64,000 nt of DNA. It comes from a virus. Taxonomy: Duplodnaviria > Heunggongvirae > Uroviricota > Caudoviricetes. Positions within the stretch are counted from its first letter, which is position 1. Every line of letters begins with the position of its first letter. The position numbers and the translations under genes are program-made. The stretch lies in IMG/VR virus record IMGVR_UViG_3300023184_000031, positions 106,256 to 170,255 of that record, one strand, 5' to 3'. Below are positions 2,789 to 43,336 of this stretch, piece by piece. The notes under the pieces were generated by a model. It worked only from the letters and a program-made list of their open reading frames with translations, was not told the origin of the DNA and searched no databases.

Positions 2789-3475
2789 ATGACTAGTATA
2801 TACGCTTTATCAAAAGAAAATTATATATTCTATATAGGAAAAACAATTAATGTACATAGTAGATTATATGAACATAAACAAAAGTATGGATCTAATATAG
2901 AAATAATAATATTAGATGAAGTAGAAGATAATAAATGGATGTTTTGGGAAAAATATTATATTTCATTGTTTAAAAGTTGGGGTTACATCTTAAAAAATAA
3001 AAATGATGGTGGTGGTGGAACAACACGAGGTACACTCCAAAAATCTCAAAAACTAAAAAAATCAAAACATAAACCTATTTTGCAATATGATTTACAAGGT
3101 AACTTTATTAGAGAATGGGAAAGTAGTAAACAAGTAGCGGACGAATTACAATTAACTAATTCTAGTGGAATAACTTCAGTTTTAAAAAACCATAGTCCTA
3201 CTGCTTATAAAAGCATATGGAAATATAAAACAGAAAATTATCCGTTTAAAATAAATCCTCCTCAATATTGGGAAAATAATTTAATACCTGTACTTCAATA
3301 TGATTTGCAAGGTAATCTAATAAAAGAATGGAGGAGCGGCAAAGAAGCTTCCTTATATTTAAATATAAATAAACAAAGCATATGCAATACTCTAAAAAAC
3401 AGAGCAAAGTCAGCATGTGGATATGTTTGGAAATATAAAAAAAGGAGGCATTATCTACCAGTCAATTTATTATGA
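2789..3475 (+). mobile_element. Free-standing GIY-YIG homing endonuclease with two NUMOD/IENR-like DNA-binding repeats.
   Basis: N-terminal 'IYALSKENYIFYIGKTINVHSRLYEHK' is a GIY-x10-YIG motif. Two C-terminal repeats 'ILQYDLQGNxIxEWxSxK' follow. The 3' end overlaps the DNA polymerase ORF start by ~59 nt. Confidence 0.8.
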
Positions 3476-6034: not shown

Positions 6035-6274
6035 ATGATCCGTCTAATACACAACCCAGACCAATTAAAAGTTACCAATCAAATTAAGATTATTGACAAA
6101 GATGGTACTGAATTAATAATACCTATAGTTGTGATAGTAGGAATAGAAAAAGTAAAGGACAAACAACAATATAACATCTACAGATTAGTAGATTATATGT
6201 TTAACAGAGATTTCGTTATAGACAAACGTATCAAAGCAACTGCCCCTAAAAAACCATGGTGGAAGTTTTGGTAA
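6035..6274 (+). CDS. Hypothetical protein.
   Basis: ORF directly downstream of the polymerase in the same orientation. Confidence 0.4.
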   Translation: MIRLIHNPDQLKVTNQIKIIDKDGTELIIPIVVIVGIEKVKDKQQYNIYRLVDYMFNRDFVIDKRIKATAPKKPWWKFW

Positions 6275-6289
6275 ATTATATTTATATAC

Positions 6290-6694
6290 ATGAAACAATA
6301 TATCAACGAAGTAAAACGATTACAGAAATTAGCAGGCATTGATGAAGCAATGCAAGTAAATCCTCAAGGAAGATTACAAGACCTAGACATACCAAGCGGA
6401 TGGAAAAGACAAAAAATAGACTCAGATCAAGATCCTGAAGAAGATATAGAAATTGAATCTTATGGGGCACCAATGGAAGGATGGGATAAAGATCATTTAG
6501 ACGTAGTTACTATAATGAAAACTCCCAAAATAGATCCACTTACTGATGAACCTCAAGAAGTTAAATATTATGTAACAACATACATATCTTTTGGAGACTT
6601 TACAGAATCTGAACAGTTTGATAATCTTGATGATGCTAAGGCAGAAGCAATAAGTATAATGAATAATTTGAAGTCTGATTGGAGAGGTAGATAA
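6290..6694 (+). CDS. Hypothetical acidic protein.
   Basis: ORF with an AT-rich promoter-like upstream sequence 'tatatttatatacatg'. Confidence 0.5.
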   Translation: MKQYINEVKRLQKLAGIDEAMQVNPQGRLQDLDIPSGWKRQKIDSDQDPEEDIEIESYGAPMEGWDKDHLDVVTIMKTPKIDPLTDEPQEVKYYVTTYISFGDFTESEQFDNLDDAKAEAISIMNNLKSDWRGR

Positions 6695-6734
6695 GAGGAG
6701 TGGTAGGTCAAAATAAAAGTTATATATTTAAGTT

Positions 6735-7460
6735 ATGAAGAAACCATATTTAGAAGACGTTATTGAAAAGTATTACTTAGGTGGTCTAGTTGAACGTGTC
6801 AAAATACAAATAGTAGATAAGACACTAACTACTAAATTTATATCTCAACAGAAAAATCTAGTAGGAGTATTAGAAGCACCAAACATTACATTACCCGATT
6901 GCGAATTCGGCGTATATGACACCTCCCAACTCCTAAAGCTAATTGGTATTACTGATCACTTCCTCACATTAGATGTTGAAGCAAATAAAGGTATAGCTAG
7001 TAAGCTATTGATTGCTGATAACGAATACAACCTAGAATATGCATTAGCAGACACAATGCTAACGCCATCAGTACCATCAATTGATGAACCAACATATCAA
7101 ATGGTAGCTGATGTTAATGCTGAGTTTATTGCTAAATTCCTTAAAGCTAAGAAAGCGCTAGGTACAGATGTATTCATTATAGAGCAAGGTAAGGACCATG
7201 AAGATAAAAACGCAATGAAGTTTACATTAGGCGGTGTAGATAAACACACTAACAAAGTTAATTTTACACTACAAACAACACAATCCTCAGTACCAGGAGC
7301 ACAGTTGAAATTCCCCATTGCCGAATTCGGCGAAATATTAGCAGCAAATAAAGAACCACTAACAGGTGTATTAAGTGTATCCGAAGATGGATTACTAAAG
7401 ATTGACTTTACTAATGAAGAAGGCGTTAAAGCAACTTACCTGCTTGTTGGTAGGGAGTAG
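6735..7460 (+). CDS. Putative sliding clamp (gp45-like), tentative.
   Basis: 241 aa with two internally similar halves ('LPDCEFGVYDTSQLLKLIG' / 'FPIAEFGEILAANKE'). It sits between the polymerase and the clamp loader. There is no diagnostic motif; the call rests on size, position and architecture. Confidence 0.35.
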   Translation: MKKPYLEDVIEKYYLGGLVERVKIQIVDKTLTTKFISQQKNLVGVLEAPNITLPDCEFGVYDTSQLLKLIGITDHFLTLDVEANKGIASKLLIADNEYNLEYALADTMLTPSVPSIDEPTYQMVADVNAEFIAKFLKAKKALGTDVFIIEQGKDHEDKNAMKFTLGGVDKHTNKVNFTLQTTQSSVPGAQLKFPIAEFGEILAANKEPLTGVLSVSEDGLLKIDFTNEEGVKATYLLVGRE

Positions 7461-7853: not shown

Positions 7854-8024
7854 ATGGAAAACATTATTGTAGAAATTAAAGTAACAAATGAAAAAGGAAA
7901 AAGCGACACAGTTTCATTTCCTTATGATGTTTATGTTGGTATGAAAGAAAATAATAACATAAATATGGTAGATGATTTATTAAGTGGTTTAATTGAAAAA
8001 CTAAAACAAAAAGATAAAAAATGA
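7854..8024 (+). CDS. Small hypothetical protein, 56 aa.
   Basis: ORF MENIIVEIKVTNEKGKSDTV... Its TGA stop overlaps the groEL ATG (ATGA), suggesting translational coupling. Below the ORF-track size cut-off. Confidence 0.35.
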   Translation: MENIIVEIKVTNEKGKSDTVSFPYDVYVGMKENNNINMVDDLLSGLIEKLKQKDKK

Positions 8025-9655
8025 GTAAAATAATCAGTTTTAACAGAGATGCTAAAGAAAAATTGAAAGTCGGTATTGACAAGGTCAATAACGCAGTATC
8101 AGTAACAATGGGACCATTTGGTCGTAACGTATTGATTGAAAAAGAACACGGACAAGTAATATCAACTAAAGATGGTGTTACAGTAGCTAAAACAGTAGTA
8201 TTGGAAGATCCAATCGAAAACATGGCCGCTACCGTAATTAAACAAGCAGCAGAAAAAACAGTAGATGCAGCCGGTGATGGTACAACAACATCAACAGTAT
8301 TAGCACATTCAATTGCAACACAAGCATTAGAGGCAACATCGTATGCATCAACAAATGCAACGCAAGTAAAGAAAGGCATTGAATCAGCTGTAAAAACAGT
8401 AGTAGCAGAATTAAAAAGAATGTCTGTTCCGGTATCTGATGAAACACAAATCAGACAGATTGCTACATTATCCGCTAACGGCGATGCTGAAATTGGTGAA
8501 TTAGTAGCCACAGCTATTGATAAAGTAGGAAGAGATGGAGTAGTAACAGTAGAAGAGTCGCGTACTGGGGAAACTAGTTTAGAAGTAGTAGAGGGTATGC
8601 AGTTTGAAAGAGGATATAAGTCACCATACATGGTTACAGACAACAATACCATGACAGCAGTATTGGATAATCCATTATTATTGCTTGTAGATGGTAGAGT
8701 ATCTTCTATTAAGGAATTATTGCCTTTACTTGAAGCAGTATCACAAGAAAATAAATCATTATTGATTGTAGCTGAAGATATTGAAGGGGAAGCATTAGCA
8801 GCATTGATTGTAAATAAAATGAGAGGTATTTTGAAGGTAGCTGCTGTTAAAGCACCTGACTTTGGAGAACGTAGAACATTAATTTTGGAAGATATTGCAA
8901 CGCTAACAGGTGGAACAGTAGTATCACACCAAAAAGGTATGAAGCTAGATAAATTCAATAAAGATTGGTTCGGTGAAGCTCGTACTGTAACAGTAGGTAA
9001 AGATACAACTACTATTGTTGATGGTAAAGGTGAAACTACAGCTATTGAATCTCGTATTATGGAATTAAAATCACAAATCGACAATTCAAATTCACCATAC
9101 GAAATTGAAAAGCTACAAGAGCGCTTATCTAAAATGATTGGTGGAGTAGCTATTATCAATGTAGGTGGTGGAACAGAGATCGAAATGAAAGAGAAGAAAG
9201 ACAGATTGGATGATGCTTTACAAGCAACTAAAGCTGCTCTTGATGAAGGTATCTTACCAGGTGCTGGTGTAGCATTATTACATGCTAGAGAAGCTATTAG
9301 CTATATTAAAACAGATGGTGAAGACTTTAATAAAGGTAAACGTATCGTACAAAATGCATGTATGTCTCCATTTGCACAAATTCTAACTAACGCTGGTGAA
9401 AATCACTATGAGTGGTTAATGCAATTGAAAGACCATAATGAAGATTCATCTTTAGTACCTAATATTGAAGAAGAAATATTAACAGACGCTTATACCTCAG
9501 GTATCATCGATCCAACTAAAGTAGTACGTTCAGCACTTGAAAATGCAGCTGCAGCCGCAGTAACATTACTAATGACTGAATGCGTAATATATGAAAAACC
9601 ATCTGATAAGAAAGCAGACGCTGGAATGGATATGATGGGTGGAATGGGAATGTAA
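8021..9655 (+). CDS. groEL: Chaperonin GroEL (Cpn60).
   Basis: 'AAGDGTTTSTVLA'. 'GGGTEIEMKEKKDRLDDAL'. C-terminal 'GMDMMGGMGM' tail. 544 aa. Confidence 0.92.
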   Translation: MSKIISFNRDAKEKLKVGIDKVNNAVSVTMGPFGRNVLIEKEHGQVISTKDGVTVAKTVVLEDPIENMAATVIKQAAEKTVDAAGDGTTTSTVLAHSIATQALEATSYASTNATQVKKGIESAVKTVVAELKRMSVPVSDETQIRQIATLSANGDAEIGELVATAIDKVGRDGVVTVEESRTGETSLEVVEGMQFERGYKSPYMVTDNNTMTAVLDNPLLLLVDGRVSSIKELLPLLEAVSQENKSLLIVAEDIEGEALAALIVNKMRGILKVAAVKAPDFGERRTLILEDIATLTGGTVVSHQKGMKLDKFNKDWFGEARTVTVGKDTTTIVDGKGETTAIESRIMELKSQIDNSNSPYEIEKLQERLSKMIGGVAIINVGGGTEIEMKEKKDRLDDALQATKAALDEGILPGAGVALLHAREAISYIKTDGEDFNKGKRIVQNACMSPFAQILTNAGENHYEWLMQLKDHNEDSSLVPNIEEEILTDAYTSGIIDPTKVVRSALENAAAAAVTLLMTECVIYEKPSDKKADAGMDMMGGMGM

Positions 9656-16777: not shown

Positions 16778-17434
16778 ATGAAAATTAGTTATGGATTGAC
16801 AGCTTGGATTGAACACCAAGAGTTAGATAGGTTACTAACCTTCTTAAAACCTAGAATAGAGGATGAAGATGAGATTATAATTGTTTATGATCAAAATAGA
16901 GCTACTCCCGAAGTAATGGCCATTATGGAAAATTTTAAAAGAGATAATTATAGATATTATCCATTTAATTTCCAACAAGATTGGTTAGCCAACAAAAATT
17001 ATTTAGGAAGCATGTGTACAGGAGATTATATATTCCAAATAGATGCAGATGAATTACCAAATGAATTTTTGCTACAAAATATAAAAATTCTATTAGAAAA
17101 CAATCCCGCAGATGTGTTTATTATTCCTAGAATTAATCTTGTTGAAGATCTCACCCCAGAACATATCCAACAGTGGGGATGGAGAGTAAATGAAAAAGGA
17201 TGGGTTAATTTTCCCGATCCTCAAAAACGCTTATATCGTAATGATCCTTCCATTCAATGGCGTGATCCTGAAGGTCAACCTCAAGTACATGGAATGGTGA
17301 CAGGATATAAAACATATGCTGAATTACCTTATGAAGAAGAATGGTCACTATATCATATGAAACATATTACTAAACAAGAATATCAAAATAGAGTATATGA
17401 TATTGTATTAAAAGGAGGAAAAAGAAATGACTAA
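16778..17434 (+). CDS. Putative GT-A fold glycosyltransferase.
   Basis: 'IIIVYDQN' and DxD-like 'QIDADE'. Assignment is weak. Confidence 0.35.
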   Translation: MKISYGLTAWIEHQELDRLLTFLKPRIEDEDEIIIVYDQNRATPEVMAIMENFKRDNYRYYPFNFQQDWLANKNYLGSMCTGDYIFQIDADELPNEFLLQNIKILLENNPADVFIIPRINLVEDLTPEHIQQWGWRVNEKGWVNFPDPQKRLYRNDPSIQWRDPEGQPQVHGMVTGYKTYAELPYEEEWSLYHMKHITKQEYQNRVYDIVLKGGKRND

Positions 17435-18377
17435 AACAGCTTTTATAACAGGAATATCTGGACAAGATGGATCTTTATTGGCTGAGTTTCTTTTAGGTAA
17501 AGGATATAAAGTTTATGGGTTGATGAGAGAAAATTCATCAAAGGATAATTTAGAAGATATTATTAATAATAAAAATCTTTATATTATATATGGTGATTCT
17601 TTAAATAATGAATTAATACGTTATTTACTAGAAACATATCAATTTGATGAAATATATAATTTAGCTTCTCAAAGTAATATTAGATTAAGTTATGATAATC
17701 CTTTAATTACATTTAATGTAACATTAATAGGAACACTTATACTATTAGAAAATATCAAAAAATATTCTCTTAAATCAAAAATATTTCAAGCCGGTTCATC
17801 AGCTATGTTTGGAAATTCAATTGATAAAGATGGATTTCAAAGAGAAACATCCCCATTCAAACCAATCAGTCCATATGCTTCCTCTAAATTATTTGCTTTT
17901 AATGTTAGCAATAATTATAGAGAAAATAATGGATTATACGTGGTTAATGGGATATTATACAATCATGAATCTTTTAAATCAAAAACATTACTTGGTGTTA
18001 CGAATAATATAATTAAACATATTACTAATATTAAAAAAGGTATTATATCTGAATATTATGTACCTAATTTTAAAGTTTATTTAGATATAGGCAATGCTGA
18101 AGATTATATAGAAGCAATGTGGCTAACTCTACAACAAGCAAAACCGGATGATTATATTATATCTACCGGTATATTAAATAGCATAGAACATATATGTCAA
18201 TATACTTGTTCTAAACTTAATTTAGATTATAAGCAATGTATCAAAACTGAAAGTAATTCAATAGAGTTACCTAAATTAAAAGGAGATTCATCCAAATTAA
18301 AATCAATAGGATGGAATCCAAAATATACATTTGAAAATACAATGGATGAAATTATTAACTTTTATATTACCTTATGA
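17427..18377 (+). CDS. gmd: GDP-mannose 4,6-dehydratase.
   Basis: 'AFITGISGQDGSLLAEFLLGKGYKVYGLMR'. 'SPYASSKLFAFNVSNNYRENNGLYVVNGILYNHES'. Confidence 0.85.
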   Translation: MTKTAFITGISGQDGSLLAEFLLGKGYKVYGLMRENSSKDNLEDIINNKNLYIIYGDSLNNELIRYLLETYQFDEIYNLASQSNIRLSYDNPLITFNVTLIGTLILLENIKKYSLKSKIFQAGSSAMFGNSIDKDGFQRETSPFKPISPYASSKLFAFNVSNNYRENNGLYVVNGILYNHESFKSKTLLGVTNNIIKHITNIKKGIISEYYVPNFKVYLDIGNAEDYIEAMWLTLQQAKPDDYIISTGILNSIEHICQYTCSKLNLDYKQCIKTESNSIELPKLKGDSSKLKSIGWNPKYTFENTMDEIINFYITL

Positions 18378-19273
18378 AAATATTAGTTACAGGAGGAAAG
18401 GGTTTAGTTGGTTCTGCCATAAATGCAGATATTAAAATAGGAAGAGAGTTTGACTTAACTTCTCAGATAGAAACTAATATGGCGTTTGAATTACACAAAC
18501 CAACACATGTTATTCATTGTGCTGGGAAAGTAGGTGGAGTTGGTAGTAATATGAAATATAAGGGAGAATTTTTTTATGATAACATAATGATTAATACTAA
18601 TGTTATCGAATCTTGTAGAAAACATAACATTGAGAAATTATTGGCCTTCTTATCTACATGTATTTTTCCAGATAATGTTGAATATCCATTAAATGAAAAA
18701 AAAATTCATATAGGCCCTCCTCATACTTCTAATGACGCTTATGCATATGCAAAACGTATGTCAGACATACAAATAAGAGCATATAAAGAACAATACGGAC
18801 TAAATTACACCTCAGTAATACCAACTAATATATATGGAATTAATGATAATTTTTCATTAGAAAATGGGCATGTCATTCCAATGTTAATGCATAAATTATA
18901 TTTAGCCCAAAAAAATAACACAGATTTTATTGTATGGGGTAGCGGAAAACCATTAAGGGAATTTATATATTCTAAAGATATTGCAAAATTATCTGAATGG
19001 GCAATTGAGAACTATAATGAGATAGAACCTATTATCTTTACTAACTCACAAGAAATTAGTATAATGAATTTAGTTGATTTATTAGTTAAAGAGTTTAACT
19101 TTAAGGGTAAAGTCGTATTTGACTCAACAAAACCTGATGGTCAATTTAGAAAACCTTCGGATAATAGTAAACTAAAATCATATTTACCTGATTTTCAATT
19201 TACATCGATTGAAATAGGTATTAAAGAAACTGTAAAATGGTTTATTGAAAATTATGAAAATATAAGAAAATAA
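18374..19273 (+). CDS. GDP-4-keto-6-deoxymannose 3,5-epimerase/4-reductase (Fcl/ColC-like SDR).
   Basis: 'KILVTGGKGLVGSAI'. 'YAYAKRM'. 'PTNIYGINDNFSLENGHVIPMLMHK' resembles Fcl 'NLYGPHDNF..SHVIPAL'. Confidence 0.75.
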   Translation: MKILVTGGKGLVGSAINADIKIGREFDLTSQIETNMAFELHKPTHVIHCAGKVGGVGSNMKYKGEFFYDNIMINTNVIESCRKHNIEKLLAFLSTCIFPDNVEYPLNEKKIHIGPPHTSNDAYAYAKRMSDIQIRAYKEQYGLNYTSVIPTNIYGINDNFSLENGHVIPMLMHKLYLAQKNNTDFIVWGSGKPLREFIYSKDIAKLSEWAIENYNEIEPIIFTNSQEISIMNLVDLLVKEFNFKGKVVFDSTKPDGQFRKPSDNSKLKSYLPDFQFTSIEIGIKETVKWFIENYENIRK

Positions 19274-19275
19274 AT

Positions 19276-20088
19276 ATGAAATTATTTATAAGCCATATTA
19301 ACAAAGATCTTTTAGAAAAAAAATTAAAATTTATAAAACATATAGATTTTTCTTTATTTGTAGATGCAACCCCTCAATCTTTAGATGATTTATCTTCTAT
19401 TAATATATTAATACTTCAAGAACCAAATGAATATTTTGGTTTACATGATTGGGCTATAAAAAATAAAGATTTATTTTCTTTTATATTAACATGGAATGAT
19501 AAAGTAATTAATAATTGTGAAAATGCTATCTTTTTACCTTTTGGCCATACCTGGTTTAAACCAGAACAATATAAAAAAAACCATCAAAAACAGTTTCAGT
19601 TATCTCATTTATGTGGTAAATTATTAAAAACCTATGGTCATTCCTTAAGACATGAATTGTTAGCTAGACAAAATGAAATAAAAATACCCCTTAAATTTTT
19701 TGATGTTTATGGTGATAGATATAATATTGAAGAGGCTAGATTAGGAAAAGAATTTATTTTTAGCGATTCAATGTTTGGAGTAGCTATTGAAAATACTTCC
19801 CATAATGGTTATTTCACAGAAAAAATACTAGATTGTTTTTTATTGAAAACAATTCCCGTATATTGGGGATGTTCATCTATATCAAATTTCTTTAGGCAAG
19901 ATGGAATTATTACATTTAATAATATTGATGATTTTATTGTTAAAGTTAACCAATTAGATGAAATCTATTATAATGATCGTCTAAAGATTATTGAAGAAAA
20001 CTATCAATTAGCTCTCCAATATGTTGATTATGAACAAAACATAATAAATAAAATAACAGAAATATTTAAATTAAATAATTTAATATAA
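19276..20088 (+). CDS. GT10-like alpha-1,3-fucosyltransferase family protein.
   Basis: 'FGVAIENTSHNGYFTEKILDCFLLKTIPVYWG' matches the GT10 motif (F..AFENS...Y.TEK...A...G.VPVV). Confidence 0.6.
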   Translation: MKLFISHINKDLLEKKLKFIKHIDFSLFVDATPQSLDDLSSINILILQEPNEYFGLHDWAIKNKDLFSFILTWNDKVINNCENAIFLPFGHTWFKPEQYKKNHQKQFQLSHLCGKLLKTYGHSLRHELLARQNEIKIPLKFFDVYGDRYNIEEARLGKEFIFSDSMFGVAIENTSHNGYFTEKILDCFLLKTIPVYWGCSSISNFFRQDGIITFNNIDDFIVKVNQLDEIYYNDRLKIIEENYQLALQYVDYEQNIINKITEIFKLNNLI

Positions 20089-20091
20089 TAC

Positions 20092-21405
20092 ATGCAAGAA
20101 ATATTAAAATTAGTGGATGAATACATCCAGAAAAAGCACTCAGAAAAAACATGGGAAGCTGGTAAAGATTGGGTTCAATACGCTGGTCCCTATTTTGATT
20201 CTCAAGAATACATAGCCGCTGTTAAAACCTTATTAGGTGAATGGTTAGTATTAGGAGCTGAAGCAATTAAGTTTGAAAATAAATTTCCTAAGTTATTTGG
20301 TAAAAAATATGGACTATTAACTAATAGTGGTTCAAGTGCTAATTTATTGATGATGTTAGCAATGACATCAAAACGAGGATATAATTTTCCTAAAGGTACT
20401 AAGGTAATAACACCAATAGCCGGATTTCCAACCACAATTAATCCAATACTTCAATTAGGATTCACACCAGTATTTGTTGATATTGAGCTAGAAACACTTA
20501 ATCTAGATTTAGATCAAGTAGAACAAGCATGTATTGATAATCCTGATGCTAAAATTATTACATTTGCTCATGTGTTAGGTAATCCACCTAATATGAATCG
20601 ACTAATGGAAATGGTTGAAAAATATAAATTAATTCTATTAGAAGATTGTTGTGATGCCTTAGGATCTTCATTTGAAGGTAAACCATTAGGATCATTTGGG
20701 GAAATGGCTAGCTGCTCATTTTACCCAGCACATCATATTACAATGGGAGAAGGTGGATTTGTAGCTATGAATAATGTAGATACAGAACGTATTGTTCGTA
20801 GTTTTAGAGAATGGGGCCGTGGTTGTTATTGCGTTGGTAAACAAAATCTACTAGAAAATGGTAGCTGTGGATGTCGTTTCAATAACTGGCTACCAGCATT
20901 ACCAAACGATATATTTGATCACAAATATGTTTATGAAGAAATTGGTTATAATTTAAAACCAATTGAATTACAAGCATCAATGGGTTTAGTTCAAATGACT
21001 AAATTAGAAGAAATAGGAATTAAACGTAGAGAGAATTATAAAAATTTATTTGCTGCATTTAGTAAATACAAACAATATTTTCATTTACATGAATCACAAC
21101 CAGGGGCAGATGTTGATTGGTTTGCTTTTCCTATAACAGTAAAAGATGGAGCACCATTTAAACGCTCTGATATCTGTCAATTTTTAGAAGCAAACAAAAT
21201 ACAAACTCGCCCTTATTTTGCAGGTAATATTATGCTCCAACCAGCATATACACATTTGATGGATTCTAAAGAAGTAATTGAAAAATATCCTGTAGCTAGA
21301 AAAGTAACTACTGATACCTTCTTTTTAGGAACATCACCTGTAATCAATAAAGAAAAAACAGATTATATAGAAACAATATTAGATAAATTTATTAATACTT
21401 TATGA
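20092..21405 (+). CDS. DegT/DnrJ/EryC1-family PLP/PMP enzyme, 3-dehydratase type (ColD/E1-like) with Cys-rich insert.
   Basis: 'LLTNSGSSANLLMM'. The active-site region 'CSFYPAHHITMGEGGF' has His-His where aminotransferases have Lys. Insert 'GCYCVGK..GSCGCRF'. Confidence 0.75.
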   Translation: MQEILKLVDEYIQKKHSEKTWEAGKDWVQYAGPYFDSQEYIAAVKTLLGEWLVLGAEAIKFENKFPKLFGKKYGLLTNSGSSANLLMMLAMTSKRGYNFPKGTKVITPIAGFPTTINPILQLGFTPVFVDIELETLNLDLDQVEQACIDNPDAKIITFAHVLGNPPNMNRLMEMVEKYKLILLEDCCDALGSSFEGKPLGSFGEMASCSFYPAHHITMGEGGFVAMNNVDTERIVRSFREWGRGCYCVGKQNLLENGSCGCRFNNWLPALPNDIFDHKYVYEEIGYNLKPIELQASMGLVQMTKLEEIGIKRRENYKNLFAAFSKYKQYFHLHESQPGADVDWFAFPITVKDGAPFKRSDICQFLEANKIQTRPYFAGNIMLQPAYTHLMDSKEVIEKYPVARKVTTDTFFLGTSPVINKEKTDYIETILDKFINTL

Positions 21406-22349
21406 AAGTAGTATATATAACGGGATGTTTAGGTTTTATAGGTTCTTACATCACTAGAAGATGTTTAGAAAAAGGATGGTATGTTAAAGGGGTAGATAAA
21501 ATGACATATGTCGCTAATAAAACATTATTAGAAGAATTTAATCAATACGAAAATTTTTCATTTGTTCATTGTGATATAAATGAGTTAGAATTTTTACATG
21601 AATGCGATTATATTATTAATACAGCTGCTGAGACCCATGTTGGTAATTCAATAGCAGGTAGTGGGGAATTTGTAGACTCAAATATTACTGGTGTTCATTC
21701 CTTATTAGAATTAATAAGAAATTATAGGCAAGAAACCTCTAAAACACCAATATTATTACACTTTAGTACAGATGAAGTATATGGAGATATTGAAGAAGGA
21801 GCACACACCGAAACAGATTTACTAAAACCCAGCAATCCCTATTCAGCAACAAAAGCAGCAGCAGATATGTTAGTTTTAGCGTGGGGAAGAACTTACAACT
21901 TACCTTATGTTATAGTTAGACCAACAAATAACTATGGTATAGGTCAATATGTTGAAAAACTAATTCCTAAAACATGTAAATATCTTAAATTAGGAAGAAA
22001 AATACCCTTACATAATGGTGGAACTCCTATTAGAAATTGGTTACATGCTGCTGATACTGCTGAGGCCGTAATAACAATTATTGAAAAGGGAATTAAAAAT
22101 GAAATTTACAATATTGCTGGGGGATTTGAACAGTCAAATCATGATACTGTAAAGAAAATAATTAAAGAATATTGTGGAGATGATAATATAGAGTCGTATA
22201 TTGATTTAACATATTCTAGAGTAGGACAAGATGTTCGTTATGCTTTAGATGATTCTAAATTAAGATCATTAGGATGGGAACCAAAGAAAAACTTTGACGT
22301 TGAATTATTAAACATAGTAAAATATTATAAAAATAAATTTATATGGTAA
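21402..22349 (+). CDS. NDP-hexose 4,6-dehydratase (RmlB-like extended SDR).
   Basis: 'VYITGCLGFIGSYI'. 'HFSTDEVYGD'. 'YSATKAAADMLVLAWGRTYNLPYVIVRPTNNYG'. Confidence 0.8.
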   Translation: MKVVYITGCLGFIGSYITRRCLEKGWYVKGVDKMTYVANKTLLEEFNQYENFSFVHCDINELEFLHECDYIINTAAETHVGNSIAGSGEFVDSNITGVHSLLELIRNYRQETSKTPILLHFSTDEVYGDIEEGAHTETDLLKPSNPYSATKAAADMLVLAWGRTYNLPYVIVRPTNNYGIGQYVEKLIPKTCKYLKLGRKIPLHNGGTPIRNWLHAADTAEAVITIIEKGIKNEIYNIAGGFEQSNHDTVKKIIKEYCGDDNIESYIDLTYSRVGQDVRYALDDSKLRSLGWEPKKNFDVELLNIVKYYKNKFIW

Positions 22350-22891
22350 AAAAAGCACTTATTATTACTTGGGAAAAATTTCAAGATCACGAATTAATTT
22401 ATCCTTATTATAGTTTAAAAGAAGCAGGGTATGAAGTAACATTAATGGCCAATAAAATAGGAAAAATATGGGGTAGTTTAGGTACTCATATGTCTTGTGA
22501 TATTGAAACATCATTATTTGAAGATGAAAATAAAAGAAAATCATATTTGAATAATTTTGAAATACTATTAATTCCAGGGGGTGTTAAAGCACTTGAAAAA
22601 TTAAGACAAGAAAAAGGTGTACTTAAGTTTGTTCAAGAATGGAATGCCGCTAACAAAACAATATTTTCAGTATGTAATGGAGCTCAATTACTTATATCCG
22701 CTAAAATATTAAAAGGAAGAACACTTTCAGGATATTATAGCATTGATGTAGATATTGAAAACGCAGGTGCTACTTATAGTCGTGGTCCTGTAGTAGTGGA
22801 TGATAATATTATTTCTTGTCCACACTACGACTTTATGGGTGATTGGATGAGAATAGCATATCAAGTACATAATGAAAGAAATAAAAAATAA
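22343..22891 (+). CDS. DJ-1/PfpI family protein.
   Basis: 'LLIPGG'. 'IFSVCNGAQLL' (nucleophile-elbow Cys). 'IISCPHYD'. Confidence 0.7.
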   Translation: MVKKALIITWEKFQDHELIYPYYSLKEAGYEVTLMANKIGKIWGSLGTHMSCDIETSLFEDENKRKSYLNNFEILLIPGGVKALEKLRQEKGVLKFVQEWNAANKTIFSVCNGAQLLISAKILKGRTLSGYYSIDVDIENAGATYSRGPVVVDDNIISCPHYDFMGDWMRIAYQVHNERNKK

Positions 22892-23559
22892 TGAGTTACG
22901 AAACTAACATTGTAAAAAAACCATGGGGTTATGAGTATCTAGCTTACAAGAATGAAGATGTAGGTCTATGGTTTCTTTACATCGCTCCTGGTCAAAGTAC
23001 ATCAATGCATTGTCACCCTAAAAAAACAACTGGGTTAGTATTATTAGATGGGGAAGCAGAAATATCATTTTTAGCTGATAAAAGAACAATAAAGTCTTTA
23101 GATAAAGTAATGATTAGAAGAGGGTTATTTCACTCTACAAAGGCTATATCAGGTAAAGGAGCTTTTATATTTGAAATTGAAACACCTGTAGATAAACAGG
23201 ATTTAGTTAGATTAAATGATCAATATGGCCGTGCTTCCAAACCTTACGAAGATAATACATTTGAAGAAACAAAAAGTCAAAATTGTTTATGGATTACAGA
23301 CGAAAACAAAATATATGATTTTGCAAATTGTACTCTTCAAGTAGAAACTATAGACGATATTAATGTGATCAATAATAAAAAAGATAATGATTTGATAATG
23401 TTTCTTAAAGGAGGTATGGTACGTAATATAGATAATATTTCTCATTGCGTTACCGTCCCCGGAGATGTTGGGTTTGCATATATTATAAAACAAGTATCTA
23501 AACAATTAGATGGAGTACTTCCAGAAACATTAATAATGACAATAATTAAAAATGGCTAA
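22891..23559 (+). CDS. Cupin-fold protein; possible sugar ketoisomerase/epimerase.
   Basis: 'APGQSTSMHCHPKKTTGLVLLDGEAEI' cupin motif 1 with H-x-H. Confidence 0.45.
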   Translation: MSYETNIVKKPWGYEYLAYKNEDVGLWFLYIAPGQSTSMHCHPKKTTGLVLLDGEAEISFLADKRTIKSLDKVMIRRGLFHSTKAISGKGAFIFEIETPVDKQDLVRLNDQYGRASKPYEDNTFEETKSQNCLWITDENKIYDFANCTLQVETIDDINVINNKKDNDLIMFLKGGMVRNIDNISHCVTVPGDVGFAYIIKQVSKQLDGVLPETLIMTIIKNG

Positions 23560-23938
23560 TTTTTACCCTCCAGGATTTGAAAATCAATTAACAGTAGTTG
23601 CTATTGATTTTGATGGTGTGTTACATAATGCTAATAAAGGTTGGGGTGATGGTACATGTTACGGAGATCCATTACCTGGATCAATAGATGCTATTAAAGA
23701 GTTATCTAAAAAATATAAAATTATTATATTCACCGCTAAAGCAAAGTCTGATCGTCCGTTAGTAAATGGTAAAACAGGAACAAAATTAGTACAAGAGTGG
23801 TTTGAAAGGCATAATATTTTAGAGTATATTGATGATATTACAAGTGAAAAACCAAGAGCTGAATTATATATTGATGATAATGGTTATCGTTTTGAAAATT
23901 GGAAAGATACATTATCATTTATAGAAAAAAACATATGA
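23552..23938 (+). CDS. Small HAD-superfamily phosphatase.
   Basis: Motif I 'VVAIDFDGVLH'. 'IIIFTAKAKSD'. C-terminal 'YIDDNG'. Confidence 0.6.
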   Translation: MANFYPPGFENQLTVVAIDFDGVLHNANKGWGDGTCYGDPLPGSIDAIKELSKKYKIIIFTAKAKSDRPLVNGKTGTKLVQEWFERHNILEYIDDITSEKPRAELYIDDNGYRFENWKDTLSFIEKNI

Positions 23939-25701
23939 TAAAAGTTTCAGATTATATATTTGATTTTTTAAAATCTAAAGAAATTGACACTATATTTTCA
24001 GTATCAGGTGGAGCAGCTGCTCATTTACTTAATTCTGTAGTTGAGAAGAAATTTAAATATATTTGCAATTATCACGAACAAGCTTGTGCTATGGCCGCTG
24101 AAGGATATGCTCGTATAGCTAATAAACCTGCTTGTGTTTTAGTTACTAATGGACCTGGGTCTACTAATACTATTACAGGTATAGTAGGGGCTTATCAAGA
24201 TTCAATTCCCATGATTATTATATCAGGTCAAGTACCTGTAAATCAATCATTGGGTAGTTTAAAAGATATTAAGTTAAGACAACTAGGGGTACAAGAATGT
24301 AATATTATTGATATGGTTAAAAATATTACTAAATACGCTGTTCAAGTAACAGATCCTAAAACTATACCTTATCATATTGCTATGGCTTATAATGAAGCTA
24401 CAACAAATAGAATGGGTCCTGTTTGGTTAGATATTCCTCTCGATGTACAAAACGCAATGATAGAGCCAAATGAATTTATAATAGATAAAAGTTTTAATAC
24501 CACTGGTTATAATATTAATGAAATAATTAATCTTATATTCCATTCCAAAAAACCACTTATCATAACAGGAAATGGCATTCATTTATCACAGACTGAAAAT
24601 TTATTTACCCAGTTAAAAAATAAATTAAAAATACCAGTAATATCAACTTGGACTTCTAAAGACTTAATGGCACAAAATGATCCATTATTTGTAGGTAATT
24701 TTGGATTATTAGGAGAGAGAGCAGGTAATTTTGCTGTACAAAATGCTGATTTATTATTAATATTAGGTAGTAGGTTATCTATTCCAAATGTTGGATATCA
24801 ATCACATTTATTTTCACCTAAATCAATTAAAATAATGGTTGATATAGATAAAAATGAATTAAAAAAACCAACAATTAACATTGATTATCCTATAAACGAA
24901 GATTTAAATAATTTTCTTACAGATATTATATCAACACTAAGTAATAAAAAGATTCCTAATTGGAAAGAATGGATAGAAAAAACTCAATTATGGAAAATAA
25001 AATATCCTGTATTTCAACCTAAATATAAAGTAAATACTGATAAGATAAATTCATTTTATTTTATGGAGATATTATCTAGTAAATTAACAGATAATAATAT
25101 TGTAATAACAGATATGGGTACAAGCTATACTTGTACAATGCAGTCTTTACAAATGAATGGAAAAAATAGATTATTTACATCTAGTGCTTGTTGTTCAATG
25201 GGGTTTGGTTTACCTGGGGCTATTGGAGCTTATTTTGGAAAACCTAATAAAGATATTATATTGATTGCTGGAGATGGAGGCTTACAAATGAATATCCAGG
25301 AATTACAAACAATAATTCATAATAAAATACCTCTTAAAATATTTGTACTTAATAATAATGGTTATTTAGCTATTTCATTAATGCAAGATAATTTATTTAA
25401 AAGTAATTATATAGGTTCAAATAATGAAAGTGGAGTTAGTTCACCTAATTTTACTAAATTAGCAGAAGTATATGGATTTAAGACATTTAAATTTAATAAT
25501 AATAGTGAATTAGAAAGTAAAATAGATACTGTTTTAAATGAAAAAGGACCTGTTTTATGTGAAATAATGATGACTGAAAACCAATTATTAATTCCTCGTG
25601 TTCAATCTTCTAAAGATGAAAATGGGAAAATTATATCTAATTCACTAGAAAATATGTTTCCTTACCTTAGTGAAGAAGAAATGAAAGAAATAATGATATG
25701 A
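23935..25701 (+). CDS. Thiamine-diphosphate enzyme, acetolactate-synthase-like (YerE-like sugar-branching candidate).
   Basis: 'GPGSTNTITGIVGAYQDSIPMIIISGQV'. ThDP-binding 'IAGDGGLQMNIQELQT...VLNNNGY'. Start set at ATG 23935 (ATGA overlap with the upstream stop) within ORF 23899..25701. Confidence 0.8.
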   Translation: MIKVSDYIFDFLKSKEIDTIFSVSGGAAAHLLNSVVEKKFKYICNYHEQACAMAAEGYARIANKPACVLVTNGPGSTNTITGIVGAYQDSIPMIIISGQVPVNQSLGSLKDIKLRQLGVQECNIIDMVKNITKYAVQVTDPKTIPYHIAMAYNEATTNRMGPVWLDIPLDVQNAMIEPNEFIIDKSFNTTGYNINEIINLIFHSKKPLIITGNGIHLSQTENLFTQLKNKLKIPVISTWTSKDLMAQNDPLFVGNFGLLGERAGNFAVQNADLLLILGSRLSIPNVGYQSHLFSPKSIKIMVDIDKNELKKPTINIDYPINEDLNNFLTDIISTLSNKKIPNWKEWIEKTQLWKIKYPVFQPKYKVNTDKINSFYFMEILSSKLTDNNIVITDMGTSYTCTMQSLQMNGKNRLFTSSACCSMGFGLPGAIGAYFGKPNKDIILIAGDGGLQMNIQELQTIIHNKIPLKIFVLNNNGYLAISLMQDNLFKSNYIGSNNESGVSSPNFTKLAEVYGFKTFKFNNNSELESKIDTVLNEKGPVLCEIMMTENQLLIPRVQSSKDENGKIISNSLENMFPYLSEEEMKEIMI

Positions 25702-26483
25702 ACAAAATATTAATTACTGGGGCTAATGGATATGTAGGTAAAGCACTACATAATGCTTTAAAAGATAAATATAATGCAATTGCTATTACCAGAAAAGAGG
25801 TAGATTTAACTAATTCTGAAGAGGTTAATTCTTTTTTCTCAAAAATGGGAGGTTTTGATGTTATAATAAATTGTGCTGTTAAAGGAGGAAGTAGATTACA
25901 ACAAGACGAATGGAATATATTAGATGATAATCTAAAAATATATTACAATTTATTAGCAAATAAATGCTATTTTCAAAAATTTATACATTTTGGCTCAGGG
26001 GCTGAATTATTCACAAAAGATAAACCATATGGATTCAGTAAAGATGTAATTAGAAAATCAATACTTAATAAAAATTATTTCTATAACCTCAGAATATTTG
26101 GGGTATTTGATGAAAATGAACTAGATACTAGATTTATTAAAGCTAATATAAAACGTTATTTAAATAACGAACCAATAATCATTCATCAAAATAAACAGAT
26201 GAATTTTATTTATATGAAAGATTTAGTTACTTTAGTAGAATATTATATAATAAATAATAATTCACCTAAAGAAATAAATTGTAATTATAATAAAACTATT
26301 ACTTTAGAAGAAATAGCAAATATGATAAATAACCTAGACACATATAAAGTTAATATAGAAATAATAAATAAAAAATCCGCGACTTCCTACTCAGCAGATA
26401 ATTTTACTGATTTAGGAATCAAATTTATAGGTTTAGAGCAAGGTATTAAAGAAGTATATAATAAATTAAAAAATGAATATTAA
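25698..26483 (+). CDS. NAD(P)-dependent SDR sugar reductase/epimerase (RmlD-like).
   Basis: 'ILITGANGYVGKAL' Rossmann motif. 261 aa. Confidence 0.6.
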   Translation: MNKILITGANGYVGKALHNALKDKYNAIAITRKEVDLTNSEEVNSFFSKMGGFDVIINCAVKGGSRLQQDEWNILDDNLKIYYNLLANKCYFQKFIHFGSGAELFTKDKPYGFSKDVIRKSILNKNYFYNLRIFGVFDENELDTRFIKANIKRYLNNEPIIIHQNKQMNFIYMKDLVTLVEYYIINNNSPKEINCNYNKTITLEEIANMINNLDTYKVNIEIINKKSATSYSADNFTDLGIKFIGLEQGIKEVYNKLKNEY

Positions 26484-28950: not shown

Positions 28951-29692
28951 AGAAACACAATTCGGTCATTTTTGTCTTATTGAGAAAGATTTAATTAGTA
29001 ATTGTATTAGTAATTATGGATATTGGGAGCAGCATCTACATTATTTTTATTCTCAATTTATTAAACCAAATGATGTTGTTATAGATGGAGGAGCAAATTT
29101 AGGATTTCATAGCATTCAGTTTGCTAAATTAGCTAATCAAGGAAAAGTATATTGTTTTGAACCTCAACCATTAATATTCAATGTATTATCTACTAATATA
29201 TTAATTAATGGAGCTACAGACATAATAAAACAATTTAGATTAGGATTAAGTGATAAAGAAGAGCAATTGAAAATGTCCCCACTTAAAGATCAAATATTCT
29301 CAGAAGATTGCATTAATTATGGAGGAAGAGCTTTAACAAATTCAGAAGAGGGTGAAGAAGAAGTTCAATTAACTAATATAGATAGTTTAAATTTATCTAA
29401 ATTAGATTTAATAAAATTAGATGTACAGGGATTTGAATTAGAAACTATTAAAGGTGGAGAAAAAACAATAAAAAATAACTATCCTATATTCTTTTTAGAA
29501 AATTATATTGATCAAGAAAAAGATCAAGAAGTAATTAAACTACTACAAGAATGGGGATATATTAATTATAGACTAGATATAGGAAATAAAGAAGATTGCA
29601 TACTAGTATACCCAGATAAACATAAATCAGAAATAAAATTTATAGAGACACAAACTAAAATAAAATATAATAAATTAAAGGATGAATATTAA
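28934..29692 (+). CDS. FkbM-family methyltransferase.
   Basis: 'VVIDGGANLGFHSIQFAKLANQGKVYCFEPQPLIFNVL'. Confidence 0.75.
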   Translation: MNIYFKETQFGHFCLIEKDLISNCISNYGYWEQHLHYFYSQFIKPNDVVIDGGANLGFHSIQFAKLANQGKVYCFEPQPLIFNVLSTNILINGATDIIKQFRLGLSDKEEQLKMSPLKDQIFSEDCINYGGRALTNSEEGEEEVQLTNIDSLNLSKLDLIKLDVQGFELETIKGGEKTIKNNYPIFFLENYIDQEKDQEVIKLLQEWGYINYRLDIGNKEDCILVYPDKHKSEIKFIETQTKIKYNKLKDEY

Positions 29693-31037
29693 ATTAATTA
29701 TATTTGATTTAGATGGAGTTTTAGTTGAAGCTAAACGTATTCATTATGATGCTTTAAATAAAGCATTGGGAGAAAAGTATGCTATAGAATGGAATGAGCA
29801 TTTATCAATCTATGATGGTTTAAAAACAAACCAGAAACTTGAAATATTAACAGAGAGAAAAGGATTATCTATTAATCTGTATAAAGAGGTATGGGATAAT
29901 AAACAAATGTATACTTTACAAGAACTAAGAAATCTTAAAGTTAATTCTGAATTAGTAACAACTATGACTATGTTAGTTAATGAAGGATATAAATTAGCTG
30001 TATGTTCCAATAGTATTAGAAAAACTGTGTTAACAGTACTATCTAAATTAGGTATTATTGAATTCTTTGATTTAATATTATCAAATGAAGATGTTAAAAA
30101 TAGTAAACCACATCCTGAAATGTATTGGAAGACAATGTCAACAATGGGATGCCTACCAGAAGAAGTATTAATTGTTGAGGATTCACCATATGGTTTATTA
30201 GCAGCAAGTAGAAGTAAAGCTCATGTAATGAGAGTTGGTTCTCCTAAAGAGGTTACATATATTAATATCCATAAACATTTAAATAAAGAAAGAATGAATG
30301 TTACTCCTAAATGGAAAGATGAAAAATTAAATGTATTAATTCCAATGGCTGGAGCTGGTTCTAGATTCGAACAAGCAGGTTATACATTTCCAAAACCACT
30401 TATTGATGTTAGAAATAAACCAATGATTCAGGTTGTTATTGAGAATCTTAATATTGATGCCAATTATATATATCTTGTTCAGAAAAAACATAGAGAAAAA
30501 TATAATTTAGATACTTTACTTAATCTACTTACTCCTGGTTGTAAAATAGTAGAAGTAGACGGTATAACTGAAGGAGCGGCTTGTACTGCATTGTTAGCTA
30601 AAGAATTTATTGGTAATGACAGTCCATTATTCTTTGCTAATTCTGATCAATTTGTAGAGTGGGATTCAAATGACTTTATGTACAAGATGCAAGAAACAAA
30701 TGCTGATGGAGGTATAGTTACATTTAAAGCAACTCATCCTAAATGGTCATTTGCTAAAATTGATGAAAATGGATTAGTAACAGAGGTAGCAGAAAAAAAT
30801 CCAATATCTGATAATGCAACAGTAGGATATTATTTTTGGAAACATGGGTCTGATTTTATTAAATATGCAGAACAGATGATTGAAAAGAACATTCGTGTTA
30901 ATAATGAATTCTATGTTTGCCCTGTATTTAATCAAGCAATTACCGATAATAAAGAAATTAGAACATTTAATGTTGAAGGAATGTGGGGATTAGGCACACC
31001 AGAAGACTTACACTATTATTTAGAAAATTACAAATGA
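29682..31037 (+). CDS. Bifunctional HAD-family hydrolase/phosphomutase fused to an NDP-sugar/phospho-alcohol nucleotidyltransferase.
   Basis: N-terminal 'IIFDLDGVLVEA', 'KPHPEMY' and 'VEDSPYGLLAA' (HAD-IA). C-terminal 'LIPMAGAGSRFEQAGYTFPKPLIDVRNKPMIQ' (G-x-G-[ST]-R nucleotidyltransferase signature). Confidence 0.7.
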   Translation: MNIKLIIFDLDGVLVEAKRIHYDALNKALGEKYAIEWNEHLSIYDGLKTNQKLEILTERKGLSINLYKEVWDNKQMYTLQELRNLKVNSELVTTMTMLVNEGYKLAVCSNSIRKTVLTVLSKLGIIEFFDLILSNEDVKNSKPHPEMYWKTMSTMGCLPEEVLIVEDSPYGLLAASRSKAHVMRVGSPKEVTYINIHKHLNKERMNVTPKWKDEKLNVLIPMAGAGSRFEQAGYTFPKPLIDVRNKPMIQVVIENLNIDANYIYLVQKKHREKYNLDTLLNLLTPGCKIVEVDGITEGAACTALLAKEFIGNDSPLFFANSDQFVEWDSNDFMYKMQETNADGGIVTFKATHPKWSFAKIDENGLVTEVAEKNPISDNATVGYYFWKHGSDFIKYAEQMIEKNIRVNNEFYVCPVFNQAITDNKEIRTFNVEGMWGLGTPEDLHYYLENYK

Positions 31038-39800: not shown

Positions 39801-40135
39801 ATATAATATGGGGAATACTGTGGGGATTAGCAGCGCAAATAACTACTTTTATACAATTACAAGGCCAATTAAAATATGATTTTCTAAAACAAAATACCTG
39901 GTTTACAGTGTTAATGGGTATTCCTATTTCATTTATGTTTATGCAATCAGTAAAGAATTTCGTTGCTGGATTTCATGGTCAAATATGGCCTTCACGATTA
40001 ATAGGTTTTGGTATTGGTGTAATTGTATTTACAGTAATGTCTGAATTATTATTTAAAGAACCATTCACAACTAAAACAGGACTCTGTCTATTTTTAGGAA
40101 TTTGTATAATAGCGATTCAGGTATTCTGGAAATAA
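39797..40135 (+). CDS. Multi-pass small membrane protein (holin candidate, or EamA/ArnE-like).
   Basis: 112 aa with 3-4 hydrophobic segments, next to the endolysin. Confidence 0.45.
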   Translation: MNIIWGILWGLAAQITTFIQLQGQLKYDFLKQNTWFTVLMGIPISFMFMQSVKNFVAGFHGQIWPSRLIGFGIGVIVFTVMSELLFKEPFTTKTGLCLFLGICIIAIQVFWK

Positions 40136-40167
40136 GTGATATTTATTGTCACAAAACCATTATTACC

Positions 40168-41526: not shown

Positions 41527-41548
41527 TACCTCACCATAAGAAAAATTA

Positions 41549-41574
41549 GGGCTTGGTTTTCCAAGCCCTTTTTT
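41549..41574 (+). terminator. Rho-independent terminator (copy 1 of a repeated hairpin).
   Basis: 'gggcttgg-tttt-ccaagccc' + 'tttttt'. The identical sequence recurs at 42241. Confidence 0.8.
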
Positions 41575-41680
41575 ATTGGGCAAGATAATATTCATATATT
41601 TAAGAACACGAATACTCCTTCGTAGAATATTAATCCGTTAAATTTCGATTTAACAATTTTTTTAACAAAACAAAACAAAC

Positions 41681-42217: not shown

Positions 42218-42240
42218 TTTACACTATACGAAGGAGTTAA

Positions 42241-42266
42241 GGGCTTGGTTTTCCAAGCCCTTTTTT
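42241..42266 (+). terminator. Rho-independent terminator (copy 2, identical to 41549).
   Basis: 'gggcttggttttccaagccctttttt'. Confidence 0.8.
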
Positions 42267-42279
42267 GTATATTCATTGT

Positions 42280-43047: not shown

Positions 43048-43108
43048 TATTTTGTAGGTTTCTGATATGTATTGCCGTAATATATTCATTAACCCAAAAT
43101 TACAAATT

Positions 43109-43282: not shown

Positions 43283-43308
43283 TAACTTCTGAAACCAAAA
43301 CTAATCAA

Positions 43309-43333: not shown

Positions 43334-43336
43334 AAC

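Follow-up and report, generated by a model that had tools for sequence, protein, structure and literature searches.

A putative E1-type sugar 3-dehydratase and its RmlB-type partner in the sugar island of an uncultured phage lineage

The stretch of DNA analysed here (the window) is 64,000 nucleotides long and covers positions 106,256 to 170,255 of the IMG/VR virus record IMGVR_UViG_3300023184_000031 (Caudoviricetes). It contains a gene for a 437-residue protein that an earlier note on the same DNA had described as a DegT-family sugar 3-dehydratase. The gene lies in a long same-strand array: its start codon is 3 nt past the preceding stop codon, and its own stop codon overlaps the start of the next gene (ATGA). 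Upstream are genes for Gmd-like, Fcl/ColC-like, and GT10-like proteins. Downstream are genes for an RmlB-type nucleoside diphosphate (NDP)-glucose 4,6-dehydratase, a YerE/JanthE-like carboligase dependent on thiamine diphosphate (ThDP), and a short-chain dehydrogenase/reductase (SDR). Positions of these and other features are listed in Table 1.

The membership of the protein in the DegT family, as claimed earlier, is confirmed. It matches the Pfam family DegT_DnrJ_EryC1 (PF01041) with an E-value of 3.6e-75. Against the NCBIfam RfbH equivalog NF011936 it scores 458.1 bits, where the curated cutoff is 423, and it stays far under the cutoffs of the NCBIfam aminotransferase models. The top PDB match is the E1 dehydrase of Yersinia pseudotuberculosis (3bcx, E-value 1.3e-98), residues 2-434 being aligned with residues 8-433 of E1. 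The H220K mutant of E1 (3bb8) stands beside it, and true aminotransferases follow at 1e-37 or weaker. The strength of these Pfam and full-length E1 matches is far past chance. A structure prediction, which had been suggested as a check, points the same way: the AlphaFold2 model (from a 71-sequence alignment) has a mean predicted local distance difference test score (pLDDT) of 96.2, and its closest fold in a Foldseek search is E1 (template modeling (TM) scores 0.88/0.91, 38% identity). Identity to DdhC of the Yersinia ddhD-ddhA-ddhB-ddhC-yerE cluster is 41.7% over the full length. The protein thus resembles E1 in its fold, in its sequence from end to end (identity approximately 38% by structure to 42% by sequence), and in the EDCCDALG, SFYPAHHIT, and W-G-R-x-C-x-C motifs. 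It is very probably a sugar 3-dehydratase of the E1/DdhC/AscC/RfbH type with a DegT fold.

The earlier note had named ColD and E1 together as the class of this enzyme. ColD (2gms) also has the DegT fold and a histidine, His188, at the lysine position, and it needs no reductase. Unlike the phage protein, however, it has a shorter loop and no Fe-S cysteines, and it is much more distant (next after E1 in Foldseek; 26% identity versus 38-42% for E1, E-value 1.5e-49, TM score 0.79). A ColD-type reading was rejected on these grounds, and only the E1 half of the proposed class is retained.

The slot of the lysine that binds pyridoxal 5'-phosphate (PLP) is occupied by His214. In the HMMER alignment, this residue pairs with H220 of E1 and with H188 of ColD, the first histidine of S187-H188-H189, and the H220K mutant has a K in this column. 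A control DegT aminotransferase from a bacterial locus (L058:12968-14077) reads SFDGIKNITSGEGG where the phage protein reads SFYPAHHITMGEGG, its lysine exactly opposite His214. Since the lysines of the control and of the mutant both fall in the His214 column, the assignment of the histidine stands. The closest lysines are K197 and K250; neither a catalytic lysine elsewhere in the motif nor a displacement of the HH dipeptide from the PLP site was seen in the alignment, in agreement with the earlier note. The 87 full-length representatives of 50%-identity clusters all have this histidine. It is likewise invariant in the protein alignment used for the cysteines below (alignment A1), in which Asp185 of the EDCCD motif, the cofactor-binding aspartate, does not vary either. 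The change from lysine to histidine defines E1, ColD, and SpnQ, in which the histidine is the catalytic acid/base (PMC8987622). A sugar aminotransferase was rejected as an identity for the protein: it has no PLP-binding lysine, and His214 fills that slot.

The phage protein has cysteines at positions 186, 187, 245, 247, 259, and 261 and three others, and E1 has them at 192, 193, 251, 253, 257, 261, 298, and 327. By alignment, C187, C245, C247, and C259 match C193, C251, C253, and C261 of E1. These four residues of E1 (C-X57-C-X1-C-X7-C) we take to be the ligands of its [2Fe-2S] cluster, reportedly those given by Agnihotri et al. 2004. The phage spacing is X57/X1/X11, the last spacer being four residues longer than in E1. 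Alignment A1 shows no variation at C245, C247, and C259, and at least 90% of its sequences keep C187; conservation is lacking at the positions that match C192 and C257 of E1. Conservation therefore singles out the same four cysteines, which supports the ligand set independently of the numbering presumed for E1. Also unlike E1, the phage protein has an additional conserved cysteine, Cys261. It is invariant in the 120 closest homologs and could serve as an alternative ligand. The CGCRF ending is found in homologs from Bacteroidota and Campylobacterota as well. Neither ColD nor the control aminotransferase has the cysteines of the EDCC motif (EDAAQ in the control), and both are gapped at the Cys loop; approximately 17 of the 87 family representatives likewise lack the cysteines. 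As judged from these matches, the phage protein quite likely holds a [2Fe-2S] cluster, for which Cys187, Cys245, Cys247, and Cys259 are the predicted ligands.

The cysteines had been described before as a cluster recalling the [2Fe-2S] site of E1 and also as a Cys-rich insert. The alignment agrees with the former. As for the latter, the long loop (CxCxGK...NGxCG.RF) occurs in many unrelated representatives, in cyanophage S-H68, and in several bacterial and archaeal genomes, so it is a trait of a subfamily. The idea of a novel insert was rejected, the X11 loop being common in the E1 family: what was seen is the canonical Fe-S loop of E1 in a common variant that is four residues longer. Some E1 homologs of 700-900 residues (P0122, P0141, P0145, P0150, and P0162) carry inteins with LAGLIDADG endonuclease domains. 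These inteins sit near the His motif or the CxC motif, i.e., at the most conserved functional sites.

An enzyme of this family might also leave the cluster unused and act by transamination at C4 (as SpnQ does in vitro) or, like ColD, as a PLP/glutamate enzyme with enamine hydrolysis. Two observations would fit such an activity: neither E3, the dedicated reductase of E1, nor a ferredoxin was found in the window or the phage loci, nor any E3 on the E1-bearing viral contigs, and SpnQ has aminotransferase activity when no reductase is present (PMC8987622). The four cysteines, however, are invariant under strong purifying selection, which is unexplained if there is no cluster; E1 and ColD show no transaminase activity under comparable conditions (PMC8987622); and ColD relatives, much more distant from the phage protein, have no Cys loop. 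This alternative is highly improbable.

Table 1. Features of the window. Positions are those of the window; functional names are predictions from similarity.
Feature	Position (nt)	Strand	Residues (aa)	Remarks
GIY-YIG/NUMOD homing-endonuclease-like open reading frame (ORF)	2789-3475			Directly upstream of the DNA polymerase gene and overlapping its start
Family-B DNA polymerase (PolB)	3417-6032
GroEL-type chaperonin	8021-9655			PHROG 5725, E-value 9e-149; conserved in related contigs
Sugar island	13361-33870			GC 0.23-0.30, versus 0.32-0.38 in the flanks
Gmd-like	17427-18377	+		Pfam and NCBIfam matches
Fcl/ColC-like	18374-19273	+		Pfam and NCBIfam matches
GT10-like (fucosyltransferase-like)	19276-20088	+		Pfam and NCBIfam matches
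Putative E1/DdhC/RfbH-type NDP-4-keto-6-deoxyhexose 3-dehydratase gene	20092-21405	+	437 in all	ATG start
EDCCD motif	20641-20655	+	184-188	Cys187 (nt 20650-20652), first predicted [2Fe-2S] ligand
Active-site motif SFYPAHHITMGEGG	20716-20757	+	209-222	His214 (nt 20731-20733) in the PLP-lysine slot
Fe-S loop CYCVGKQNLLENGSCGCRF	20824-20880	+	245-263	Cys245, Cys247, and Cys259 predicted ligands; Cys261 extra cysteine
RmlB-type NDP-glucose 4,6-dehydratase	21402-22349	+		TIGR01181, 303 bits; PDB 2hun, 1.2e-70
DJ-1/PfpI-like protein, cupin, small HAD-like protein	22343-23938			Between the RmlB-like and ThDP enzyme genes
YerE/JanthE-like ThDP-dependent carboligase	23935-25701	+		Best PDB match 8rph; probable start ATG 23935, not TTG 23899 as in the mechanically called ORF
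Short SDR, candidate YerF-like or 4-keto reductase	25698-26483	+	261 in all	Pfam Epimerase/RmlD_sub_bind
HAD (beta-phosphoglucomutase-like) and nucleotidyltransferase fusion	29682-31037	+		Pfam HAD_2 and NTP_transferase
Cell-envelope-like run	40102-49258
OmpA-domain protein with PD40/TolB-like repeats	40102-41526
Outer-membrane beta-barrel protein	41681-42217
SPFH/Band 7 protein	44665-45609
Papain-like protease with Big domains	45940-47484
PKD-domain protein	48077-49258

In an uncultured lineage of T4-superfamily phages, the E1-type gene belongs to the conserved backbone. It is found at 68-93% identity in 55 related loci, where it keeps its position downstream of a nuclease gene and two conserved glycosyltransferase genes. 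Metagenome proteins 87-99% identical to its product are very numerous, and a contig of 170,341 bp encodes the identical protein. Pairwise ratios of nonsynonymous to synonymous substitution rates (dN/dS) are 0.04-0.09, which indicates that the gene is functional and under strong purifying selection. Among species-representative bacterial and archaeal genomes, there is no homolog above 49% identity, and recent capture from a sequenced host was rejected for this reason. The window also encodes a family-B DNA polymerase, a clamp loader, a PD-(D/E)XK nuclease, GroEL, and ClpP. The closest cultured relative by its polymerase is Microcystis phage Mel-JY01, and since identity to it is only 34%, the phage is an uncultured and distant member of the T4 superfamily. 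When GenBank phages were searched by megablast with the sugar island and with 22 kb of the window, no match was obtained; the genome could thus be placed at the protein level only. The sugar island is a mosaic: two glycosyltransferases, a GT2 protein, the E1-type enzyme, and the RmlB-like enzyme are kept across the 55 loci, and the genes between them vary from locus to locus. Elsewhere in the window, the envelope-like proteins of the run listed in Table 1 suggest a Gram-negative host.

Partner genes of the E1-type gene were counted in two sets of loci. In the first, 47 long phage loci were compared with 46 long cellular loci that have the canonical X7 loop. The second consists of 40 long related loci, all with E1 by selection, counted under stricter thresholds; for these, only presence or absence and identity values were used. 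The reference was the cluster of Yersinia vastinensis (locus L110), which contains ddhD (E3), ddhA, ddhB, ddhC, a 571-residue ORF in the yerE position, and a 310-residue ORF. The two groups of the first set have different partners. Among the 46 cellular loci, E3 is found in 3, DdhA in 36, DdhB in 27, and an RmlB-like enzyme in none. Among the 47 phage loci, none has E3, DdhA, or DdhB, and 42 have an RmlB-like enzyme. A YerE-like ThDP enzyme is found in 26 and 27 of them, respectively. The window itself gave no match to E3 (DdhD), DdhA, or the yerF-position ORF of L110, and L110 DdhB found there only the RmlB-like ORF, at 23% identity. Motif scans for ferredoxin and ferredoxin-NADP+ reductase produced nothing credible in the window or the phage loci, and none of the contigs returned when IMG/VR was scanned with a profile from an E3 alignment also bears an E1 gene. 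The setting therefore differs from that of E1 in Yersinia: the enzyme is phage-encoded, its partner is of RmlB type, and E3 (DdhD/AscD), DdhA, and DdhB were not found.

The RmlB-like gene behaves as a second backbone gene in these comparisons. It is present in 36 of the 40 related loci, and its identity to the window copy tracks that of E1 (Spearman 0.69, p 7e-8), as does that of the backbone glycosyltransferases (0.69 and 0.78). GC content is 0.314 in the E1-type gene, 0.295 in the RmlB-like gene, and 0.31-0.34 in the backbone glycosyltransferase genes. It is 0.242 in the Gmd-like gene, 0.230 in the GT10-like gene, 0.265 in the ThDP enzyme gene, and 0.23 in the SDR genes; these look like imported cassettes. 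Judging by its conservation beside E1, the RmlB-type enzyme has a somewhat better than even chance of being the source of the 4-keto-6-deoxy substrate. With an RmlB-type partner, the nucleotide carrier is probably not cytidine diphosphate (CDP).

Several further observations concern these partners. The HAD and nucleotidyltransferase fusion is unusual, and the best NCBIfam match of its C-terminal half is rmlA_long, a weak one of 57 bits; it is a candidate for the sugar-1-phosphate activation step. The DJ-1/PfpI-like protein, the cupin, and the HAD-like protein that follow the RmlB-like gene recur together in six related loci, and the cupin has a weak match to the C-terminus of mannose-6-phosphate isomerase. 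Locus L057 carries the closest E1 relative outside the clade (P0121, 54% identical). Its order (6123-7194) is E1, then an RmlB-like gene whose product is 66% identical to that of the window, then a split transketolase, which is another ThDP enzyme found with E1. Some loci have ORFs of about 390 residues with a 4Fe-4S motif (CxxCxxCxxxCP) that are not E3-like (L031 13091-14263, L043 18821-19993, L048 15463-16632, and L056 15495-16664). Natural fusions join an RmlD-like protein to E1 (P0130, P0133) or E1 to an extended SDR (P0139, P0152); no fusion of E1 to an E3-like reductase was seen among the E1 homologs.

The same counts bear on the canonical CDP pathway. In that case the enzyme would be a true DdhC acting on CDP-4-keto-6-deoxy-D-glucose, and DdhA, DdhB, and E3 would be supplied by the host or encoded outside the window. 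The RfbH equivalog score above its cutoff and the frequent presence of DdhA (36/46) and DdhB (27/46) in the cellular relatives are consistent with it, and the window is only 64 kb of a genome of approximately 170 kb. However, all three proteins are missing from each of the 47 long phage loci, no E3-like match lies on E1-bearing viral contigs, and the conserved adjacent dehydratase is of RmlB type, with no CDP-glucose dehydratase among its PDB matches at or below 1e-20. It is quite improbable that the phage enzyme works in this pathway.

The ThDP enzyme downstream bears on the fate of the product. Its best PDB match (9.3e-107) is 8rph, and acetolactate synthases follow at about 4e-70; it is under every acetolactate-synthase equivalog cutoff. 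Entry 8rph is JanthE, a YerE-like enzyme that has been characterised and catalyses the coupling of aldehydes with ketones. JanthE is a nearer relative of the phage enzyme than is the yerE-position ORF of Yersinia (L110; 28% identity, E-value 4e-61), and the phage enzyme carries an ordinary GDG ThDP motif where JanthE has CDG. The acceptor to which YerE couples pyruvate is CDP-4-keto-3,6-dideoxy-D-glucose, the product of E1 and E3 (PMC9306805). As in the yersiniose and erwiniose clusters (ddhDABC with yerE/yerF, as in Y. vastinensis L110; ErwE/F/I/J, PMC9306805), an E1 gene thus stands near a gene for a YerE-like ThDP carboligase; unlike in the yersiniose clusters, no ddhD, ddhA, ddhB, or YerF homolog was found in the phage window. 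Another example is seen in a related phage locus, L001 (Ga0492737_0000064), where the gene for a ThDP enzyme precedes those for an acetaldehyde dehydrogenase-like protein (Semialdhyde_dh/AcetDehyd-dimer) and an aldolase-like protein (HMGL-like/DmpG) (17947-21314). ErwE uses a 4-hydroxy-2-oxo acid made by an adjacent aldolase and acetaldehyde-dehydrogenase pair (PMC9306805). The L001 trio has the ErwE/ErwJ/ErwI arrangement of the proposed erwiniose pathway, and that phage may therefore make a sugar with a longer branch. The short SDR of the window co-occurs in about 25 related loci. No report of YerE/JanthE-like carboligases in viruses was found.

The earlier note had predicted that the phage produces a 3,6-dideoxyhexose of the colitose or ascarylose type, which is borne out only in part. 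A 3,6-dideoxy-4-keto sugar is plausible, and the conserved RmlB-type partner that the prediction invoked is in place; DdhA, DdhB, and E3 of the known pathway were not found in the window or in the 47 phage loci, and with a YerE/JanthE-like enzyme downstream such a sugar is less plausible as the end product. The chance is about even that the E1 product in the window is an intermediate for a C4-branched, yersiniose-type sugar.

From homology to Yersinia E1, the following reaction is proposed. The C4 keto group of an NDP-4-keto-6-deoxyhexose would condense with pyridoxamine 5'-phosphate (PMP) to form a Schiff base. A proton would be abstracted from C4' of PMP by His214, with expulsion of the hydroxyl at C3. 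The 3,4-ene intermediate would then be reduced by two single electrons through the [2Fe-2S] cluster held by Cys187, Cys245, Cys247, and Cys259 (or Cys261), and NDP-4-keto-3,6-dideoxyhexose would be released with regeneration of PMP. Such a mechanism with PMP, histidine, and [2Fe-2S] cluster has been described for E1 and SpnQ (PMC8987622). As no E3 is encoded nearby, a general ferredoxin or flavodoxin system of the host is the most likely source of the electrons, as for SpnQ. From the association of genes, the substrate would come from the RmlB-type enzyme and the product would pass to the YerE-like and SDR enzymes, which would attach an acyl branch at C4 and reduce it. The resulting yersiniose-type sugar would be the substrate of the adjacent glycosyltransferases.

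SpnQ, the TDP-4-keto-2,6-dideoxy-D-glucose 3-dehydratase of Saccharopolyspora spinosa, was compared by description. It has an E1-like histidine and [2Fe-2S] motif, it acts on a dTDP sugar, and it has no dedicated E3 and uses general ferredoxin or flavodoxin reductase pairs (PMC8987622). The phage setting resembles it in that no E3 was detected and an RmlB-type dehydratase is adjacent, which would suggest a dTDP carrier. Unlike in the phage setting, the substrate of SpnQ is 2-deoxygenated and the pathway leads to an antibiotic; no Nudix-type 2,3-dehydratase stood out in the Pfam matches of the window. A viral system of similar composition is found in Synechococcus phage S-H68. Its protein QBP05885 ('CDP-4-dehydro-6-deoxy-D-glucose 3-dehydratase') is 43% identical to the protein of the window and belongs to the same long-loop subtype (WGRGCYCVGQQNLLSNGVCGRRF), and its sugar island has a dTDP-glucose 4,6-dehydratase and no E3. 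S-H68 differs in that it belongs to the Kyanoviridae and that no YerE-like enzyme was detected within 19 kb of the locus.

Taken together, we give a probability of roughly 65% to the reading that the protein is a PMP- and [2Fe-2S]-dependent E1-type 3-dehydratase that is fed by the RmlB-type enzyme, works independently of E3, and has its product tailored by the downstream cassettes. A number of points weigh against it. Cofactor, cluster, and substrate are all assigned by homology, and the ligand numbering of E1 was presumed. The Fe-S loop, four residues longer than that of E1, is the part of the model with the lowest confidence (pLDDT 75-84). The search for a reductase covered 64 kb of a genome of approximately 170 kb. 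A ThDP enzyme lies within 10 kb in about 57% of loci under relaxed thresholds (27/47; 26/46 in a second count) and in 17 of 40 under the stricter ones. Finally, no YerF homolog was detected, and the short SDR has no detectable similarity to the Yersinia yerF-position ORF.

The remaining points against this reading would also fit a guanosine diphosphate (GDP) sugar, and with it a colitose-like pathway. Colitose is 3-deoxy-L-fucose, and ColC is a homolog of Fcl. In such a pathway, the E1-type enzyme would 3-deoxygenate the GDP-4-keto-6-deoxy-D-mannose made by Gmd, the Fcl-like protein would act like ColC to give GDP-L-colitose or a relative, and the GT10-like protein would install the sugar. Gmd-like and Fcl/ColC-like genes are found upstream in the window, where they are contiguous with the genes for the GT10-like protein and the 3-dehydratase. 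A Gmd of near-canonical type adjoins the E1 gene in about a dozen of the related loci; in L001, L009, L018, L025, L026, and L033, a Gmd of 307-409 bits (cutoff 415) comes directly after E1, and the order in L024 is E1, Fcl-like, Gmd. Colitose synthesis does without E3, in keeping with the failure to find one here. On the other hand, Gmd-like proteins are present in 11 and Fcl-like proteins in 6 of the 40 long loci, compared with 36 for the RmlB-like enzyme. The Gmd, Fcl, and GT10 genes have a cassette-like GC content of 0.23-0.28 (0.31 in E1), and Gmd, Fcl, and a fucosyltransferase-like enzyme make a complete GDP-fucose module by themselves. Moreover, the characterised GDP-specific 3-dehydratases are all of the Cys-less ColD type. 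A colitose-like product is therefore unlikely. The link to GMD drawn in the earlier note holds as far as a Gmd-like gene adjoins, but the Gmd, Fcl-like, and GT10-like genes form a low-GC, swappable cassette.

A wider and more tentative reading, to which we would give clearly less than even odds, is that E1 and the RmlB-type enzyme form the core of a phage island for glycan diversification. They would make an NDP-4-keto-3,6-dideoxyhexose as a hub intermediate by a non-CDP, E3-independent route. Interchangeable cassettes (Gmd/Fcl-like modules, C-methyltransferases, and ThDP modules of the YerE/JanthE or ErwE/I/J kind) would convert it to rare sugars that differ among members of the lineage and that would be used to decorate virions or to remodel the surface of the host. 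If this is true, the products would include acyl-branched sugars of the yersiniose or erwiniose type, for which there is no prior report from viruses.

The E1-type enzyme itself is ordinary and already annotated automatically. The IMG name of its family is 'CDP-6-deoxy-D-xylo-4-hexulose-3-dehydrase', GenBank gives the cyanophage homolog the same type of annotation, and a virome study lists ascC/ddhC/rfbH as viral auxiliary metabolic genes. The mechanism of E1-type 3-dehydratases has been known for decades, and the enzyme adds little to it. Only the context of the phage pathway is unusual: a backbone gene of a widespread uncultured lineage, with an RmlB-type and E3-less set of partners and swappable tailoring cassettes, among them the recurrent YerE-like carboligases. 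If confirmed, this pathway would extend acyl-branched 3,6-dideoxy sugars to viruses. E1 chemistry independent of E3 would have a natural test case in it, and it would be a source of new ketone-accepting ThDP carboligases, which are of biocatalytic interest.

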